Source: Bacteroidota bacterium
GTDB lineage: Bacteria; Bacteroidota; Bacteroidia; Chitinophagales; Chitinophagaceae
NCBI GenBank assembly: GCA_048498555.1
Contig: JBEHXT010000002.1
Coordinates: 139,075 to 203,074 of the forward strand
Direction of reading: 5' to 3'
Length of the DNA stretch: 64,000 nucleotides
In this document: positions 30,598-41,470 of the stretch, in pieces
Layout: every line of letters begins with the position of its first letter
Position numbering within the stretch: position 1 is the first letter of the stretch
The notes under the pieces: generated by a model
Told to the model about the DNA's origin: nothing
Seen by the model: only the letters and a program-made list of their open reading frames with translations
Database searches by the model: none
Position numbers and translations under genes: made by a program

Positions 30598-31338
30598 TCA
30601 AAAAGGCGTTTTATTAAAGTTTTCGATTACGATACCTGCATCTGCGATATGAACCGTCTTACCAGTTGCGCGTGATATCTTTTGATGAAATTCCGTGGCG
30701 TTACTGTTGCTATCTGACAGGTGTATCAAAACAATGTTGTTTACTTTGCTCAGGTCGTTTGCAAGAAGTGTATTCCTACATGTGTCAATGCTCATGTGCG
30801 ACTGGATAACACGGTCCTTTAGAAAGTCTTTCAACCTACCCTCATCAACTTTCCTGCGGATGATATCCAGGCAATAGTTCGCCTCGATCAGGATGTTGTG
30901 AATGTTTTTGAACTTGTTACTTACATAGTATGTGTCCGTCAAAAACAACACATTTCCAGTTTCCTCATGGTTGATAATAAAACCGACTGGCTGCCTTACG
31001 TCGTGATTAACATCGAAGGCAATCACTTTGAAGCCACCCACAACGAACACCTGTCCGACACTGATCTTTTTAGCTCTATGGTTCTCTATTTTCAGCGCTT
31101 CAAACGTTCCTGGTGCGGAGTAAACATCTATCCCTGCAGCCATAACCTCGTTCACACCCTTTGCATGGTCTCCATGTTCGTGAGTAAGCAGACAGCCGGC
31201 GACTTTTGACAATTGGAAATTCAAAGCCTTTTTAATCTTTTCGAACCTTACACCTGCCTCAATGATCAAAGCCTCTTTGTCATTTTCCAGTATGTAACAG
31301 TTACCGGCTGAGCTGCTGCCTATGATTTTTAATTTCAT
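30598..31338 (-). CDS. Metallo-beta-lactamase-fold nuclease
   Basis: GSSSAGNCY, THEHGDH, HD, TDT, EANY, SHMS and IHLS motifs. Confidence 0.9.
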   Translation of the reverse strand: MKLKIIGSSSAGNCYILENDKEALIIEAGVRFEKIKKALNFQLSKVAGCLLTHEHGDHAKGVNEVMAAGIDVYSAPGTFEALKIENHRAKKISVGQVFVVGGFKVIAFDVNHDVRQPVGFIINHEETGNVLFLTDTYYVSNKFKNIHNILIEANYCLDIIRRKVDEGRLKDFLKDRVIQSHMSIDTCRNTLLANDLSKVNNIVLIHLSDSNSNATEFHQKISRATGKTVHIADAGIVIENFNKTPF

Positions 31339-31960: not shown

Positions 31961-33976
31961 CTATGCTACTCTCAATTTTTTGTCCTGTGGTGAAACAAAT
32001 AGGTTAATGATTTGAGCTGTTGTTTCAGGAATTTGGCAAACGCTTTCCCTGTTGTCCAGGAAGACCGGTCCATCCGCATTGAAGTGCTCGCGCAAAGTGT
32101 TTATGATATCCAAACCAACCCATATTTGAGAGGCGGTGTTTAAATCAGAGAACGGAACACCGTTGTATGTAGTTTCGCAGCATTCAACCTCACCCCCATT
32201 TACCTGGCGTTCGAAGAGTTTGAACTTTGCATATTTGAATTTTCCGTTGATACGGCTTTCAACCATGTCAAGTTTGGCCCTGTTGAATTCGTCCAGAGTA
32301 AACTCGATATTTTCAAGGTCTGCAAGTTCCTGGGCCAGCGTCTTTTGTTGCTGCTCCAGCTCTGCTTGCCGGACGTTGGCATTTTCAATCAACTCTTCGT
32401 TCATTAAAGTCCTTTGCAATCCTTGTATTTCGCTTTGGATAGTTGCTTTTGCTTCCTGCAGCGATGACAGATCTACTTTTTCTTCTTTTACTGGATTAGC
32501 TTCTGCCAGCTCCAGATCGGTTTTAAGCTTTGTATATTCAGGATTGGCAAGCAAAGCATTGGCAATAACTTCCTCAATATTTATTACTGGTGCTGAATCG
32601 GACTCTAATGAAGGCAGCTTGCTTTCCAAGACCTTCAACTCATCTTCAAGGATTACCAAAGCAGCTTTAGCCTTTTCTACGCGCTCAGCCAGGATTTCGC
32701 CATTCTTCTTTTCGGCAACACCCTTAGCATTTAGTTCAGCCAGCTTCGTTGCTTTCCTATCATTGAATGATGTCTCATACTTGGACTGTGCCTCGTTATG
32801 ATTGGTAAGGAGCTGACCTTTTTTTGTAGCGATGTCGCCATCAGGCAAGTGCTGTTTACAAGTTGGGCAAAAGCATGATGATTCGTCAAAGATGAATGCG
32901 GGATAAGGATCCATTACCTTTTCATTTTCGTCCACCCATTCTTTCCGGATCATATCTCTTGCACTGTTCGAATTCAAAAGCTGCTGTTCAAGCGTGTTAA
33001 GCTCATGTGCCTTTGATTTGATGACACCTTTTTTGTCGGATATTTCCCTTGTAAGGTTATTTACCTGGGCAACTTTCTGCGATGTTGATGCTGTCGCTTT
33101 TTGCCTTTCCTCAAACTCAATATTGCGCATAGCATTTTTCAGAGAGTGGATGTTGTTTTGCCAAGCCACTACCCTATTGTGATACTCTGAATTTGCTTTC
33201 GAACGATCAAGCAAATAATTGTCTTGATTTTCGAGTTCGGTTTGTTTTCTCAGCAATTGAGTTCGGATAGCATTGAAGTCCAACATTTCAGGCCTGCTTC
33301 TAACAAGCTCATCAATGCGTGTTGGAATAGAATCGAGCTCAGTTTTGATTTTTGATTTTTTCGCTCCGATTTCACGCTTGTATTCAATGAGCGTCTTGTT
33401 AGACAGCGCATCCAAAACTGAACGGAATTTTTCATTGCTCGCGGCAATCTCTGAGTTGCTGATATTGCCGGCAAGTTCCATAAGTACATTGCGACGGTCC
33501 TGCCATTTGAGATTCCTGTTGAAGTACAGCGGGTTTGTGATAAGCTTAAACAAGCCTTCATCCAGAATGTCGGACACCTTCTTATCAAACTCTGCTTGCT
33601 TAACAGGCACATCGTTCCAAAAGTAGACGTTTTCGTTACCGGTGAACTCTGTTTTTGAGCTCCCTTTTTTCGTCGTCCATTTTTCACGCATTACCTTTTT
33701 AGGCGAAACGATTTTGCCATCAACCTCGAGCTCGGCAGAAACTTGAATCTCCGTTTGATCTGTTGTCTTACCATCTTTGTCAAGGTTCTTGATGCCGAAC
33801 TTCGTGTTGTTGTTACAGTCCTTGTCAAACAGTAACCAGGTAAAGCCATCGAATACAGTCGTCTTGCCAGTTCCATTGTCACCGAAAATGTCTGTGATGT
33901 GTTTGAAGTGAATGACGAGGTTCTTGATACCCTTAAAATTGATCAGGGTTAAACTTTTTAATTGTACTTTTGCCAT
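31961..33976 (-). CDS. SbcC/Rad50-like AAA ATPase
   Basis: NFKG, Walker A GDNGTGKTT, long coiled coil with a CPTC zinc hook, LNTA signature-like motif and Walker B FLDNRE. Confidence 0.88.
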   Translation of the reverse strand: MAKVQLKSLTLINFKGIKNLVIHFKHITDIFGDNGTGKTTVFDGFTWLLFDKDCNNNTKFGIKNLDKDGKTTDQTEIQVSAELEVDGKIVSPKKVMREKWTTKKGSSKTEFTGNENVYFWNDVPVKQAEFDKKVSDILDEGLFKLITNPLYFNRNLKWQDRRNVLMELAGNISNSEIAASNEKFRSVLDALSNKTLIEYKREIGAKKSKIKTELDSIPTRIDELVRSRPEMLDFNAIRTQLLRKQTELENQDNYLLDRSKANSEYHNRVVAWQNNIHSLKNAMRNIEFEERQKATASTSQKVAQVNNLTREISDKKGVIKSKAHELNTLEQQLLNSNSARDMIRKEWVDENEKVMDPYPAFIFDESSCFCPTCKQHLPDGDIATKKGQLLTNHNEAQSKYETSFNDRKATKLAELNAKGVAEKKNGEILAERVEKAKAALVILEDELKVLESKLPSLESDSAPVINIEEVIANALLANPEYTKLKTDLELAEANPVKEEKVDLSSLQEAKATIQSEIQGLQRTLMNEELIENANVRQAELEQQQKTLAQELADLENIEFTLDEFNRAKLDMVESRINGKFKYAKFKLFERQVNGGEVECCETTYNGVPFSDLNTASQIWVGLDIINTLREHFNADGPVFLDNRESVCQIPETTAQIINLFVSPQDKKLRVA

Positions 33977-34801
33977 GATTTGAATTCTAGTTTTCGTTTA
34001 AGAATGAGCCTTGTTAACAGCAAGGCTTTTTTATTTGTCTAAAATTTTGGTTTGAGGATTATAAGTATTTGCCTGCGCGAATACCCTTGTATGTAAAGCC
34101 TCATAGCTTCCAGTGCTCTATTACTTACCATTTGCTTTAATTGAATTTTTTCTAAAAGGTGCCGGCACTTACCCGACCGGCTTAGACCATGTGACCCACA
34201 TGGAGCGTACGATCCGAACGTGGGCGCCTTGTACAAGCTTCATCTTACGCCCTTGATTCATCGTTGACCATTTGTCCGTCTTGATGTTGCTCCAGGATAG
34301 TGATCACTCACACACCTGGAATACCATTGCCGTGGGCTTTCTGTTACTTTGCTTGAATTTGCTGCTTTCATCCTTCAAGCAATAATGTTTCTGGTGGCCT
34401 GTCTCCATCCTTTTTCTTGCGCCCTGCAGCGGACAGAATCATCTAAGGAAACTTAATTAACGGTTGGATTTTTAGCTCCCGGATAGCCGTCTCTTGCACA
34501 CCGGGAATTTTTTGTCTCATGATTTACTTCCTACAATCTGTTCTTTATACAACAGAAGGGAGACACATTGCATCGGCACCTCGTTAGCAGTTGCCCGCTA
34601 TGCGGTTGAGGTGTTGTTCCTGTTTCTAAGCCGGTTTCTTTTAATCCTACTTTCCCTGAAAGCACCGCCAACAAACCGGTTCGTTTTATTATTTGATTCA
34701 AAGAACTTCTTAACTAAAGCGCTTACCTGACATTTAACCACCTGTAACTTGTAAACAGCGGTTACTCGGTATTCAGAGCGGAATTGCTGCGCTTATTAAA
34801 A

Positions 34802-34823
34802 GCCCTGCCAAGACTAGCCGGGC
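34802..34823 (-). repeat. Conserved hairpin copy A (loop region TAGTCTTGGC), followed by TTTT
   Basis: Minus strand GCCCGGCTAGTCTTGGCAGGGC-TTTTAA. Confidence 0.6.
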
Positions 34824-34856
34824 CTAAACCCTTAAAACAACCAACATGTAAATACT

Positions 34857-34959
34857 GAACCGGAGACAGGATTTGAACCTGCATTCATTTCATAACTCTG
34901 ATTACGTGAACCATAAAGAACATTTGCTTTATGTGCGGTTACTATTTCGCCACTCCGGA
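34857..34959 (-). ncRNA. tRNA-like element 1 (no canonical anticodon loop, long variable arm)
   Basis: Acceptor CCGGAG/CTCCGG; D-stem GCG/CGC; 7-bp stem CATAAAG/CTTTATG with an 8-nt loop; 29-nt variable hairpin; T-arm GCAGG-TTCAAAT-CCTGT. Confidence 0.7.
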
Positions 34960-35024
34960 TACGCTGCGTTTTTCAGTTTTTGGCACCTTAGGTAGCAGCA
35001 ACCCACAGCCAAAAGATTTTAATT

Positions 35025-35046
35025 ACCCGGCCAAGACTAACCAGGT
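35025..35046 (-). repeat. Conserved hairpin copy B (loop region TAGTCTTGGC)
   Basis: Minus strand ACCTGGTTAGTCTTGGCCGGGT; all stem positions pair by WC or GU. Confidence 0.6.
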
Positions 35047-35071
35047 TTATTGCTTGCCATATGAAAAACTG

Positions 35072-35184
35072 TAGAGAGGACAGGGTTCGAACCTGCAAGT
35101 GCTTTTCTAAGATGTGCGCGTTGTCGCACATTCACTAAACTTACCGATATCTATAAGTGCGTCTACCTGTTCCGCCACCTCTCT
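35072..35184 (-). ncRNA. tRNA-like element 2 (Leu/Ser-type D arm, 8-nt non-canonical anticodon loop, ~43-nt variable arm)
   Basis: Perfect acceptor AGAGAGG/CCTCTCT; TGGCGGAACAGGTAGACGCA D-arm; CTTAT-AGATATCG-GTAAG; internal ATGTGCG/CGCACAT hairpin; T-arm GCAGG-TTCGAAC-CCTGT; no encoded CCA. Confidence 0.8.
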
Positions 35185-35313
35185 GTTTGCCCTGCTGCTC
35201 TAAAGCAGGGCTCCTATGACCTCGTTCAAGGAAGGTCAATTCCATTGAAAAGAACTGCACGGGCAATCAAGTGGCCGCATCCACTGTCTATCGAAGGAGT
35301 TTTCCTTCAAGAA

Positions 35314-35508
35314 CTATTTTGTTTCGTAGAATAAGTCTGCGTTGTCATTCAGCATGAACAACCTTTGGCTGCAGCTGCTCAGGTAGTGCTGATCTTCTTT
35401 CTCTTTTTCGGAAGGATCATACTTACTTGTAGCGAGTAAAATCATGTAGAATATTATTGCTACTATAACGAGTATGGCTATTGCGAATATGATAATTGGA
35501 GTTGTCAT
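35314..35508 (-). CDS. Small single-pass membrane protein
   Basis: N-terminal hydrophobic helix IIIFAIAILVIVAIIFYMILL. Confidence 0.6.
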   Translation of the reverse strand: MTTPIIIFAIAILVIVAIIFYMILLATSKYDPSEKEKEDQHYLSSCSQRLFMLNDNADLFYETK

Positions 35509-35540
35509 CTTTAAAAGTGTTTCAGGTTAATTGTGATTGT

Positions 35541-35801
35541 TTATGCGTAAGCTTGTTCAGCTAATTGTACTACATGCATCTCACCATTTGCATTTACCCG
35601 CACATCGGATACTGCTGCAGAAGCGTCTTCGATACCAAGTGCTTTATGAACAAATGGCTTTGCCATTGATGCCATCAAGTCTACATACCCTTTGATAAAT
35701 GTGTCCCGTTGATCAGGAGTATTCAAGTCTGAATCGATCAGTGTAAGAAAGGCCTGGGCTCTTTCGTGTTTCTTTTTAAGATCAGTTACTACTTGTGACA
35801 T
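35541..35801 (-). CDS. Hypothetical early protein
   Basis: ORF track; downstream of the cro-like gene. Confidence 0.6.
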   Translation of the reverse strand: MSQVVTDLKKKHERAQAFLTLIDSDLNTPDQRDTFIKGYVDLMASMAKPFVHKALGIEDASAAVSDVRVNANGEMHVVQLAEQAYA

Positions 35802-35813
35802 GGCGGTAAGTTT

Positions 35814-35924
35814 TTATTGATTGCTTGGTTGTGGTTTTGGATTCAATATTTCCTCCAGCATTCCTTCCAATAGGAAGAGGTGAAACGGCGTCAGTTCATC
35901 ATCATCTTCTATTTCCTCGTTCAT
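35814..35924 (-). CDS. Possible small acidic peptide (36 aa)
   Basis: Hand translation MNEEIEDDDELTPFHLFLLEGMLEEILNPKPQPSNQ; fills the gap between cro and the next gene. Confidence 0.35.
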   Translation of the reverse strand: MNEEIEDDDELTPFHLFLLEGMLEEILNPKPQPSNQ

Positions 35925-35961
35925 CTTTACTCAGTTAAGGGTGCTATCAAATATTTTAATG

Positions 35962-35992
35962 TTGCGGATTGAAAAATTGCATTATACATTTG
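35962..35992 (+). promoter_or_regulatory. Bacteroidota sigma-70 promoter pointing antisense through cro toward cI (P_RE-like)
   Basis: TTG at 35962, 20-nt spacer, TACATTTG at 35985-35992; matches the TTTG / TAnnTTTG consensus. Confidence 0.5.
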
Positions 35993-35999
35993 TAGTCGG

Positions 36000-36233
36000 T
36001 CAACCCACGAATTCTTTATCCTTAATGATCTGTACCAAGTCGTTTTCCTTTATCCGCAAGTGTCTAGCAATCGCCCGCAATGAAGCTTTTTGAGTAAGCT
36101 GAGGGTCGTTTCTGCGAAGAAGTGCAGGAAGAGTGTATATAGATTTTTTCAAAGCCTTACTCACTGCTGTAAATAAATCAGCATCATCTTTTATTTTATC
36201 CAGAATATCCTGTTTTAAAACAACTTGTTCCAT
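36000..36233 (-). CDS. Cro-like regulator
   Basis: 77-aa helical protein divergent from the repressor, at the head of the early operon. Confidence 0.6.
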   Translation of the reverse strand: MEQVVLKQDILDKIKDDADLFTAVSKALKKSIYTLPALLRRNDPQLTQKASLRAIARHLRIKENDLVQIIKDKEFVG

Positions 36234-36305
36234 TGCTGAATGTTTTTGTTATTTTGTTTGCGATTTTGCTTTGTGAAAGCGCTGTGTGATTCAGTGATGT
36301 AAAAT

Positions 36306-36353
36306 TGATAAACTTTTTAATCAAAAACAAATTTTTGATAAACTTTTTTATCA
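36306..36353. promoter_or_regulatory. Two 18-bp operator palindromes between cro and cI
   Basis: TGATAAA-CTTT-TTAATCA (36306-36323) and TGATAAA-CTTT-TTTATCA (36336-36353), 30 bp apart. Confidence 0.75.
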
Positions 36354-36368
36354 TTTACCTTATTATTA

Positions 36369-36962
36369 ATGAATATCAAAGAGTTACGTACTAAAATTAA
36401 TTTAAGCCAGCAGGATCTTTCTGACAAAACAGGAATTCCGAAAGGAAGAATAGCCCAGTGGGAGGTCGGCAAGGCCAAGCCCAAAGTAGAAGACCAGGAA
36501 ACTTTGATAAACTTCTTTATCGAGAACGGGGTTATGGAAAGGACCGGCACATTAAATGATGCTGAATTGTATCGAGCGACAATTCAAAATTTATCAGAAA
36601 GTAACAGGCTTGTAGCGGAAGCTATTAAGCTACAAAGTGAGGCCGTAAAAATACAGGCTGAGTCTAGTCGCTTATTGGCCATATCAAACAGTCAACTCCT
36701 GGAAAGTAACCGAGAGCTGACTGCTTTGTCAAAAATGACTACTGGGTCGAGTGGTCCAGAAATTCCTGCAGCCGTCGCCGCCAAGTTCGAGGATCTTCTG
36801 GCAGCAGTTGCAGAGATTGTTGGTGGTCAACATAATTACAAGTCCCGAAATGAGGCTTTCGCAGAAATACACAGACTTTTCTACGATACGGGAAAGGGTA
36901 CCCAACATGAGGGCACACGGGTCGGTGGGGGCACGAGGCGCATTGAGAAATCAAATTCATGA
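36369..36962 (+). CDS. CI-like XRE HTH repressor (no S24 peptidase domain seen)
   Basis: IKELRTKINLSQQDLSDKTGIPKGRIAQWEVGKAKP HTH; coiled-coil C-terminal half. Confidence 0.82.
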   Translation: MNIKELRTKINLSQQDLSDKTGIPKGRIAQWEVGKAKPKVEDQETLINFFIENGVMERTGTLNDAELYRATIQNLSESNRLVAEAIKLQSEAVKIQAESSRLLAISNSQLLESNRELTALSKMTTGSSGPEIPAAVAAKFEDLLAAVAEIVGGQHNYKSRNEAFAEIHRLFYDTGKGTQHEGTRVGGGTRRIEKSNS

Positions 36963-39592: not shown

Positions 39593-41143
39593 ATGCAAGC
39601 GGTAGGGTATGCAAGGCTTTCAGATAAGGATAGTAGCAGCAACAGCATTAAAAGCCAATGTCGCAGGATAGAGGAATATTGCGCTTTCAACAAACTCGAA
39701 CTACTTAAAATTTTTATAGATGATGGCAAATCCGGATGGACATTTGACCGGCCGGGATTTGTTGAACTCGAAAAGTTCTGTAAACAAAATCGATCTGTTC
39801 AATTCCTGGTTATTCCTCACTTCGATAGATTCTCCAGAACGGATCCTGTTGACGCCATGGTAAAAGAACGATACTTCAGGGATAAACTGAATGTGAAAGT
39901 GCTGCAAGTATCCGAACCTATGGACATGGATACAAATAACCCAACATATTTGATTGTTCGGTTTATGCAGGCATTCGCTGCAAACGAGGAACGCAATCGA
40001 ATAGTGGACCGTGTTATTACTGGTCAGAGATACAGCCTTTCTCAAGGCCGGTATTGCAGCAACGCTCCTATTGGCTATAAAAATAGCAGAGATGAAAACG
40101 GGAAACCGCTATTGAAAATTGATGACGAGAAAGCACCAATCATAAAATTCATTTTCAAGTCATTTCTCCGCGGTGTTAGCATTGAAGAGACACGACGCCA
40201 GGCTAAGTTGAAAGGCTTTACTCAGGGTGGTAAAATGGCCATGCATCGCATTCTTTCCAATCCCGTTTATGCAGGGCTTGTAAATGTTCCAGCTTATAAG
40301 AATCAGCCGGCAAAAGTGGTAAAGGGAGTTCACGCCCCTATTATTTCAGAAAACGATTATTGGACAGTGCAAGAAAAGCTAAATGCAAAAACATATAAGG
40401 CGCAAGTTAGAGAAGAGGTGCCTTTGCGAGGTGTGCTAAAGTGCGAATGTGGCAGAAGATTGACCGCCGCGCCATCAAGAAGCAAGACAGGCAAATACTA
40501 TTGGTATTACTTCTGTGAAGTTCACAAAAAGAATTTCTCAGCTGTAAAACTCCATAAGCTGTGGGATGATATTTTAGTAGCGCTCAGTATGTCAGAAAAA
40601 GATGCAGCCAAGCTTAAGACATGGTTGACCGACGAAATACAAAAATTTATCAATGAAAAGACAAAGGAATTGATGAAAGTCGGCTTAGCTGTTCAAAAGG
40701 CTGAACGAGCAATTGAAGCGATTGAGGAAAAGTTCCTACTACAACCGGATATCAGCCAGGCAACTTACAACAAAGTTATCAAGGAAAAGAGATTCCAATT
40801 GAACGAGCTGCAGGCTCAGCAAGCAGCATTGAATGTTGATGCTCATGTCTACATGGAGCGCCTGAATACTATAATGAGCAAGATCACCGACCTGAAAGCC
40901 AGATGGGATAGTTATGACCTTCCCAGTAAACATAACTTCATTTTACAGGGGTTCGGGCCAAACCTCATCTATGCCGAAGGGGAATATCGAACTCCGTTTT
41001 TGCACCCTCTTTTGAAGGCAAACAAGTTGAAACTTAAAGAATTAGGGTTAGTGATAGAAACAAAAAAACCTTCCGAAGAAGGTTCAATTTTAGAAGGTGG
41101 AGCTGAGGGGGATCGAACCCCTGTCCAAACATATTTACCATAA
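39593..41143 (+). CDS. Large serine recombinase (prophage integrase)
   Basis: Resolvase domain GYARLS...DDGKSG...DRPGF...FDRFSR, recombinase domain APIGY/NPVYAG, zinc ribbon KCECG...YFC and a coiled coil. The last 16 codons lie antisense within tmRNA. Confidence 0.93.
   Translation: MQAVGYARLSDKDSSSNSIKSQCRRIEEYCAFNKLELLKIFIDDGKSGWTFDRPGFVELEKFCKQNRSVQFLVIPHFDRFSRTDPVDAMVKERYFRDKLNVKVLQVSEPMDMDTNNPTYLIVRFMQAFAANEERNRIVDRVITGQRYSLSQGRYCSNAPIGYKNSRDENGKPLLKIDDEKAPIIKFIFKSFLRGVSIEETRRQAKLKGFTQGGKMAMHRILSNPVYAGLVNVPAYKNQPAKVVKGVHAPIISENDYWTVQEKLNAKTYKAQVREEVPLRGVLKCECGRRLTAAPSRSKTGKYYWYYFCEVHKKNFSAVKLHKLWDDILVALSMSEKDAAKLKTWLTDEIQKFINEKTKELMKVGLAVQKAERAIEAIEEKFLLQPDISQATYNKVIKEKRFQLNELQAQQAALNVDAHVYMERLNTIMSKITDLKARWDSYDLPSKHNFILQGFGPNLIYAEGEYRTPFLHPLLKANKLKLKELGLVIETKKPSEEGSILEGGAEGDRTPVQTYLP
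41062..41084 (-). terminator. Intrinsic terminator for tmRNA, embedded in the integrase CDS
   Basis: Minus strand AACCTTC-TTCG-GAAGGTT followed by TTTTTG. Confidence 0.8.
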
Positions 41144-41470
41144 GCTTTCTACATGCTTATTCCATTATTAATTGTCGTCGATAAACAGGAAACGGACAAA
41201 CCGATCTATCGCTTAGCTGGATGGTCTTAAGTAACGGTCACAGCCTTCCGTTACAGCATTCTGTGTTTAGTTTTGAGTCGGCGGCGGAGCTTGGTAACAG
41301 AACAACCTGCTCAACGCGGCCCTAATGACTATCTAATCACTGATTAGGCAGCCATGGCATACTGTGTATTGCCATTTGAAGTTTGAATATTCAGATTAAA
41401 GTGCTAATTATACAACGCACTGCATGCTTACACCTACCGTAACCTACGCTGTCAAAACCAGTACAGCCCC
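41096..41470 (-). ncRNA. ssrA: tmRNA
   Basis: 5' GGGGCTGTACTGGTTTTGACAG; 3' GGTTCGATCCCCCTCAGCTCCACC with the G3-U70 pair; tag ORF at 41373-41344 encoding GNTQYAMAA-stop. Confidence 0.96.

Follow-up and report, generated by a model that had tools for sequence, protein, structure and literature searches.

The early operon of a prophage of Danxiaibacter (Chitinophagaceae), contained in a stretch of DNA of 64,000 nucleotides (nt) that we call the window, holds on its minus strand a gap of 1337 nt (35313-33977) between a small membrane-protein gene (35314) and an SMC/AAA_23-type ATPase gene. We consider it probable, with moderate confidence, that this gap is an array of separate small-RNA modules in the minus-strand early operon, whose tRNA-shaped handles would be processed and whose trailers would mimic host RNAs. 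The upper 871 nt of the gap (34440-35310) are the range that an original prediction, made from the sequence alone, had flagged as a possible large structured phage RNA. Its view that this is RNA-coding rather than protein-coding DNA, with tRNA-like elements at its centre, is borne out by our analysis. As far as sequence data can tell, the real content of the stretch is revealed by comparison with other sequences, and not by thermodynamics. The features on which the argument depends are given below, R2 being a family model built from 66 viral sequences of the IMG/VR database, none of them from this prophage lineage.

35310-35291, 35286-35268, 35239-35216 and 35212-35188, minus strand: four leader hairpins (fold)
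35184-35072, minus strand: T1, an anticodon-less tRNA-Leu-like RNA of 113 nt (R2, alignment with host tRNA-Leu)
35071-35024, minus strand: T1 trailer, a copy of host motif C (35068-35049, 20 nt) and a hairpin (35046-35025)
35016-34975, minus strand: spacer hairpin between T1 and T2 (fold of 35071-34960)
34959-34858, minus strand: T2, a tRNA-Leu-like RNA of 102 nt (Rfam tRNA model, R2, fold)
34857-34792, minus strand: T2 trailer, in which host motif A (34852-34827) is copied ahead of a hairpin (34825-34800) and a short U-rich end

The two tRNA-like elements that the original prediction had seen inside the stretch were recovered independently, T2 by the Rfam tRNA model and both T1 and T2 by the intron mode of ARAGORN and by R2. 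T1 has a 7-bp acceptor stem (7/7 paired), a Leu-type D arm, a T arm and a discriminator A, its anticodon and variable arms being replaced by a middle of ~62 nt. T2 in isolation folds into five arms (z = -2.84), namely an acceptor (6 bp plus U-U at 1-72), a D arm, a substitute for the anticodon arm with a 7-bp stem and an 8-nt loop, a long extra arm and a T arm; its discriminator is U, as it is in its ortholog. Both elements align with five host tRNA-Leu genes across the acceptor stem, the Leu-type D arm and the T arm, the distance from D arm to T stem being ~62 nt in T1 and ~56 nt in T2 versus 36 nt in the host genes. In place of an anticodon stem of 5 bp and a loop of 7 nt, both have an enlarged and variable middle, and no encoded CCA was found after either of them.

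These are not canonical tRNAs. The Rfam model RF00005 gives T2 34.5 bits (gathering score 29), reached only with a 33-nt insertion, and does not report T1 even at E<=10. ARAGORN calls neither element in standard mode; in intron mode it reads T2 as Leu(CAG) but the 89%-identical ortholog of T2 as His(ATG), and there is therefore no consistent anticodon and no conserved intron. It is on the RF00005 outcome and this lack of a consistent anticodon that canonical tRNA status was rejected. A reading of T1 and T2 as intron-containing tRNAs was likewise rejected, because the 89%-identical orthologs disagree in both insertion point and anticodon; with 12-51 nt, the intron-mode inserts also fall below the size of group I introns.

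Both elements do combine an acceptor stem, a Leu-type D arm and a canonical T arm with a significant leave-out score, which are the marks of the RNA1 type of phage T5. R2 gives T1 69.7 bits (E 1.4e-15) and T2 46.0 bits (E 1.8e-9), a membership that covers only the tRNA body, since the model also scores true tRNA-Leu genes; in the host genome the family model matches only T1, T2 and genuine tRNA-Leu, tRNA-Tyr and tRNA-Ser genes. Judged by their sequence and predicted pairing, T1 and T2 have the shape of tRNA-Leu without being able to decode, and fall into the family of T5 RNA1.

This family is widespread among viruses. A pattern consisting of a Leu-type D arm and a T loop 45-75 nt apart is matched in at least 115 IMG/VR contigs, and ARAGORN calls tRNAs in only 6 of the at least 115 listed contigs with pattern matches. 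The interiors of the viral members are mutually unrelated and structured in varied ways. In an alignment of 71 sequences, 98.7% of the pair cells of the acceptor, D and T stems are paired and 190 cells are changed on both sides, a level reached by none of 500 shuffles, with real covariation limited to the acceptor stem and the outer T-stem pairs because of the way in which the set was collected. A stable hairpin ends no more than 6 nt from the 5' end in 18 of 78 viral members (23%), versus 4% of control positions. R2 also finds members in other prophages with the same ATPase gene, in Myroides and Gaoshiqia, and gives a weaker match (22.7 bits) in Agriterribacter. An Agriterribacter prophage (L047) holds at 2561-2800 a tRNA-Leu-type 5' half, an interior of ~170 nt and two T-arm-like segments, which may represent a very large family member or two fused ones.

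The trailers of T1 and T2 proved, by sequence comparison, to be copies of motifs conserved in the host. The 20 nt at 35068-35049 match exactly seven loci of the host genome, G000. The 17-mer core of this motif C (35065-35049) has its host copies at C1:422460-422476, C4:130673-130689, C9:194326-195216 (three copies), C22:5894-5910 and C24:65080-65096. With at most one mismatch, it occurs in 109 of 151 sampled Chitinophagaceae genomes (108 of 150 genera), in 1-9 copies per positive genome, against 0-1 for the reversed control. It precedes a terminator hairpin with covarying arms in all 12 cross-genus loci and in the 7 host copies inspected, and is often located in the 3' untranslated region (3'UTR) of a small lipoprotein gene. 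From its distribution, motif C looks like a major small-RNA or 3'UTR element of Chitinophagaceae that has so far gone uncatalogued. The lipoprotein gene whose 3'UTR contains the motif was considered as an antisense target, and rejected, as its start region is not complementary to motif C.

The T2 trailer shares an exact match of 22 nt with a host element downstream of lon (C1:469719-469747), made up of 26 nt followed by a terminator. The 26-nt core of this motif A is found at 92-100% identity in 57 of the 151 genomes, mostly as a single copy, and three related host loci (C2 near 122456, C15 near 36044 and C19 near 65534) have promoter-like boxes of their own. No Rfam family was reported at gathering score on 14 host motif loci, so that two RNA elements spread across the Chitinophagaceae are brought to light here without a match to an Rfam family. 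The phage copies retain motif and hairpin, with weak or absent U tracts; the hairpin of the T1 trailer has 9 bp, three of them G-U, and no U tract after it. The G-U pairs of the gap hairpins are compatible only with an RNA of the minus strand.

Comparison with the sister prophage of D. flavus (genome G001) revealed how modular the gap is. Its T1 interior is wholly different and longer, and 66 nt stand there in place of 475 nt of the window, while the modules that flank these replaced blocks are 85-89% identical between the two prophages. Acceptor pair 3-70 is A-U in T1 and C-G in the sister ortholog, a compensatory change. The spacer hairpin between T1 and T2 is kept in the sister prophage, a one-sided change there preserving the pairing. 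The last leader hairpin (35212-35188) is strong (-15.3 kcal/mol) and terminates 4 nt ahead of T1; the leader sequence of the sister prophage is unrelated, yet there, too, a G+C-rich hairpin immediately precedes the tRNA-like element.

Modules of the gap also recur singly, and in other combinations, in other genomes. In a set of 80 loci that carry the ATPase gene, the Chitinophagaceae relatives (Ferruginibacter, Agriterribacter, Niastella and others) have ordinary tRNA genes (Met, Trp, Ser, Phe) upstream of it, and we count these true tRNA genes in the same slot in favour of an array of processed modules. In L047 the space between tRNA-Ser and tRNA-Met is taken up by a host-type motif and a hairpin that directly adjoin both genes; no promoter is visible there and no U tract follows the hairpin, and therefore only tRNA processing could release this module. 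In the same prophage slot of a further relative (L051:2791-2881), there is a tRNA with an 8-nt anticodon loop, given a four-base anticodon by ARAGORN, and a long extra arm; a hairpin precedes this odd tRNA and a host-type motif module follows it.

The gap would thus be transcribed as part of the minus-strand early transcript. T1 and T2 would keep exactly the parts that are read by RNase P, RNase Z and the CCA-adding enzyme, namely the acceptor stem, the T arm and the elbow formed by the D and T loops, and the RNase P and RNase Z of the host would cut both ends of each tRNA-shaped handle. We infer such cutting because the gap has no internal promoter box or terminator and no encoded CCA, because the host has RNase Z (its genome encodes a full-length homolog, 291 bits) and because a hairpin stands before T1. 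A minus-strand scan of 33900-36400 for the -7 promoter box of Bacteroidota was negative, and a simple scan for terminators passes none on that strand of the gap. The cuts would split the transcript into an upstream mRNA with a protective hairpin, stable tRNA-shaped RNAs and intervening pieces, two of which would start with a single-stranded copy of a host motif followed by a hairpin. Once released, these trailers might mimic host small RNAs or 3'UTR elements, by pairing with the same targets or by soaking up the same binding factor. One might speculate further that the phage carves mimics of two family-wide host RNA elements out of its transcript and so seizes or titrates a host post-transcriptional circuit, a tentative idea that we think has some chance of being right but is doubtful.

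Several points weigh against an array of processed modules. Its exact arrangement is found in two prophages of one genus only, and the thermodynamic stability of the stretch is ordinary. T2 may be a poorer processing substrate, because it carries U-U at pair 1-72 and a U discriminator. As to the viral family, the collecting pattern fixes most bases of the D and T arms and the sequences kept had at least 6/7 acceptor pairs; neither the upstream hairpin (23%) nor a closely following ORF (47% vs 32% in controls) is general to it. Finally, no antisense target of at least 16 nt was found in the host genome, where BLAST of the gap returned only same-sense paralogous motif copies and matches of 16-18 nt at chance level.

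Among the other explanations, one is compatible with the array: the tRNA-shaped RNAs could themselves be the effectors, the neighbouring modules being incidental. They might be charged by leucyl-tRNA synthetase, which does not read the anticodon, or be decoys for tRNA-binding enzymes or for tRNA-cleaving defence nucleases. Discriminator A and the Leu-type D loop, kept in T1 and in most family members, speak for this, as does the HEPN RNase cassette that the same prophage carries. The U discriminator of T2 and its ortholog does not fit, and the interiors are too variable to mimic one particular anticodon loop, so that we regard this as unlikely.

The gap could also be a cis-acting leader, its hairpins serving as pause or termination signals, or as put- or nut-like sites, that gate the recombination and replication genes. 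The hairpin series does lie between the early genes and the ATPase gene, short U runs follow two hairpins (at 34799-34792 and after 34143), and in several related phages a terminator-like hairpin stands immediately before the ATPase gene. Most hairpins, however, are without a U tract and none passes the minus-strand terminator scan, the stretch is separated by ~1 kb or more from where the promoter probably lies, which is not so for put sites, and ordinary tRNA genes occupy the slot in related phages. We found nothing specific in support of the control of read-through suggested by the original prediction, and give this explanation little credence.

A decaying tRNA cluster, in which T1 and T2 are dead tRNA-Leu genes and the remainder is neutral spacer, seems to us about as improbable. 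It would account for the working tRNAs in the same slot of related prophages, for the destroyed anticodon arms of T1 and T2 and for the 8-nt anticodon loop of the L051 tRNA. Decay is difficult to reconcile with the compensatory acceptor-stem change that occurred between the two prophages despite a replaced interior, and with a design maintained, with near-perfect pairing, in more than 60 distinct viral sequences; moreover, for T5 RNA1, the cultured example, the annotation is that of a stable RNA.

The folding data bear mainly on the possibility of a single large RNA. The stretch is indeed poor in ORFs, as had been claimed: 34440-35310 holds no minus-strand ORF longer than 56 codons (the longest have 56, 47, 47, 41 and 40). 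The small ORFs of the gap that were scanned against Pfam and PHROG gave no match, and on this ground a coding reading of the gap was rejected. All the stems listed in the original prediction are present as well, and each folds as described once excised; their z-scores (-1.6 to -4.4) are biased, because the pieces were hand-picked. Folding beyond chance did not hold up for the whole stretch, where comparison with dinucleotide shuffles gave the minus strand a minimum-free-energy z-score of -1.63 (1 of 20 shuffles equally good) and the plus strand one of -0.97. Sliding windows of 120 nt over 34440-35310 gave z-scores from about -1.8 to +1.0, the same range as in flanking coding DNA. A large RNA thus fails thermodynamically, as its folding is no better than that of shuffles, an outcome that the original prediction had itself named as telling against it. 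Rfam scans of the window, the gap region, the sister locus, the host motif loci and the viral hairpin loci returned tRNA and tmRNA only; GOLLD and ROOL were matched neither in the window as a whole (gathering score) nor in 33900-35600 (E<=10). In spite of the scarcity of ORFs, the many local stems, the adjoining tRNA-like elements and the prophage location, one GOLLD- or ROOL-like multi-domain RNA over the whole stretch is hardly credible, given the lack of any Rfam match, the shuffle-level folding (z -1.6), the block indels and swapped interiors in a relative that is 85-89% identical and the separate recurrence of the modules elsewhere.

The lower part of the gap holds further modules, as follows.

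34796-34323, minus strand: lineage-specific block of ~475 nt (comparison with the sister prophage, which has 66 nt)
34762-34736, 34682-34628, 34608-34588 and 34558-34534, minus strand: hairpins of this block, which also holds a partial two-stem copy (34510-34473)
34325-34287, minus strand: two-stem hairpin with invariant internal-loop bases (partial copy at 34510-34473)
34206-34143, minus strand: double hairpin and U run, nearly identical in the sister prophage
34131-34039, minus strand: ORF of 30 codons, outside the flagged range, upstream of the ATPase gene and kept in D. flavus
34032-34000, read on both strands: hairpin just upstream of the ATPase gene (terminator scan, fold)

The lineage-specific block has no homolog in GenBank phages or in 60 relatives, and its small ORFs match no family. 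BLAST of the whole gap against GenBank phages likewise gave no match. The two-stem hairpin, which is not in Rfam, recurs as a pattern in the sister prophage and in 34 IMG/VR contigs (L240:2934-2965, L239:5870-5901 and 32 other loci). Of its pair cells 98.8% are paired, and both the free position of the outer stem and the inner stem show compensatory changes. At most viral loci, L240 among them, it is followed by a variable spacer and then by a terminator-like hairpin with a similar loop. In L240, the only contig inspected in detail, tRNA-Leu-like genes (47 and 68 bits) stand on either side of it. The double hairpin at 34206-34143 is likely to be the 3' end of an RNA that starts at the two-stem hairpin. 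The 30-codon ORF, which differs from that of the sister prophage by 7 replacement and 4 silent changes and matches no family in the Pfam and PHROG scans, encodes a product that resembles the opening helices of a helix-turn-helix domain, and may stand for a mini-protein or for a gene remnant. The last hairpin (34032-34000) reads like an intrinsic terminator on the plus strand, opposing the operon, and has a weak tail on the minus strand; equivalent hairpins hold the same position in two related prophages (L027 and L051).

The prophage occupies the window up to ~41143 and is integrated at the tmRNA. Its landmarks around the gap are listed below.

41095-41470, minus strand: tmRNA, the integration site of the prophage
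39593-41143: serine integrase gene, adjoining the tmRNA
36233-36000, 35801-35541 and 35508-35314, minus strand: early-left genes, the last being the small membrane-protein gene
33976-31961, minus strand: SMC/AAA_23-type ATPase gene, downstream of the gap

The gap begins ~0.9 kb below the first early gene, and hence is not promoter-proximal. A protein with a metallo-beta-lactamase fold (30598-31338) is encoded two genes downstream of the ATPase gene and gives generic matches only (Lactamase_B_2, and weakly RNase Z, RNase J and Apyc1). The idea of a phage RNase Z was dropped, because these matches are only weak and generic; the protein may be a nuclease partner of the ATPase.

As to known systems, the gap resembles GOLLD and ROOL in being prophage-borne, near tRNA genes and active at the RNA level, and differs from them in having no Rfam match and no conserved large architecture. 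The put sites of phage HK022 are two stem-loops just below the early promoter that act in cis on RNA polymerase; they share with the gap the location in a prophage early operon and action at the RNA level, but are promoter-proximal, which the gap is not. A parallel in design is provided by the TMERs of murine gammaherpesvirus 68, in which a viral tRNA-like element is followed by regulatory RNA hairpins that are freed by tRNase Z. In these, as would be the case here if processing occurs as we propose, a non-decoding viral tRNA shape is used as a processing handle. TMERs are, however, not homologous to T1 and T2, being eukaryotic Pol III units that make microRNAs.

The trailers and their host models share their build with the GibS/FopS small RNAs of Bacteroides, which have a conserved single-stranded 5' part and a terminator and occur in many copies, also in a phage (PMC11697453). 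The likeness extends to the conserved single-stranded 5' stretch, the terminator hairpin and the multiple copies. It does not extend to sequence, as no Rfam family was found on the host loci (gathering score) or in the window region (E<=10); the Chitinophagaceae elements also belong to another bacterial family, and several of their copies are 3'UTRs of small-lipoprotein genes.

The nearest relatives of T1 and T2 are RNA1 (and RNA2) of phage T5 and rnaC and rnaD (the species 1 and 2 RNAs) of phage T4, in which a tRNA-Leu-type body likewise keeps its acceptor, D and T arms closed while an unrelated insert takes the place of the anticodon arm. With R2, T5 RNA1 reaches 44.2 bits (44.2-44.8 across models), above the tRNA-Leu of T5 itself (29-31 bits), and T4 rnaC matches the family models only weakly, with 25 bits. 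The T5 and T4 RNAs are surrounded by tRNA genes and are immediate neighbours of other small stable RNAs, T5 RNA1, RNAI, RNAIII and tRNA-His being arranged end to end. They differ from T1 and T2 in their setting, T5 and T4 being virulent coliphages with large tRNA clusters, whereas T1 and T2 belong to a temperate Bacteroidota prophage and are placed within its early operon, upstream of recombination genes. Their inserts share no sequence with T1 and T2, and host-motif trailers are annotated in neither T5 nor T4. Rfam 15 has no separate family for the tRNA-like elements, for the host motifs or for the two-stem hairpin, and standard annotation is therefore blank here or may report broken tRNAs. 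The annotation of T5 RNA1 and T4 rnaC reads 'tRNA-like stable RNA with unknown functions', and the carving of host-RNA mimics out of the phage transcript, if true, would give a first function to the 50-year-old class of T5 RNA1 and T4 rnaC, as processing handles for neighbouring regulatory RNAs. The presence of the same design in a Bacteroidota prophage and in more than 60 uncultured viral sequences, beside copies of host motifs, suggests that RNAs of the T5 RNA1 type may serve as the punctuation of small-RNA arrays.

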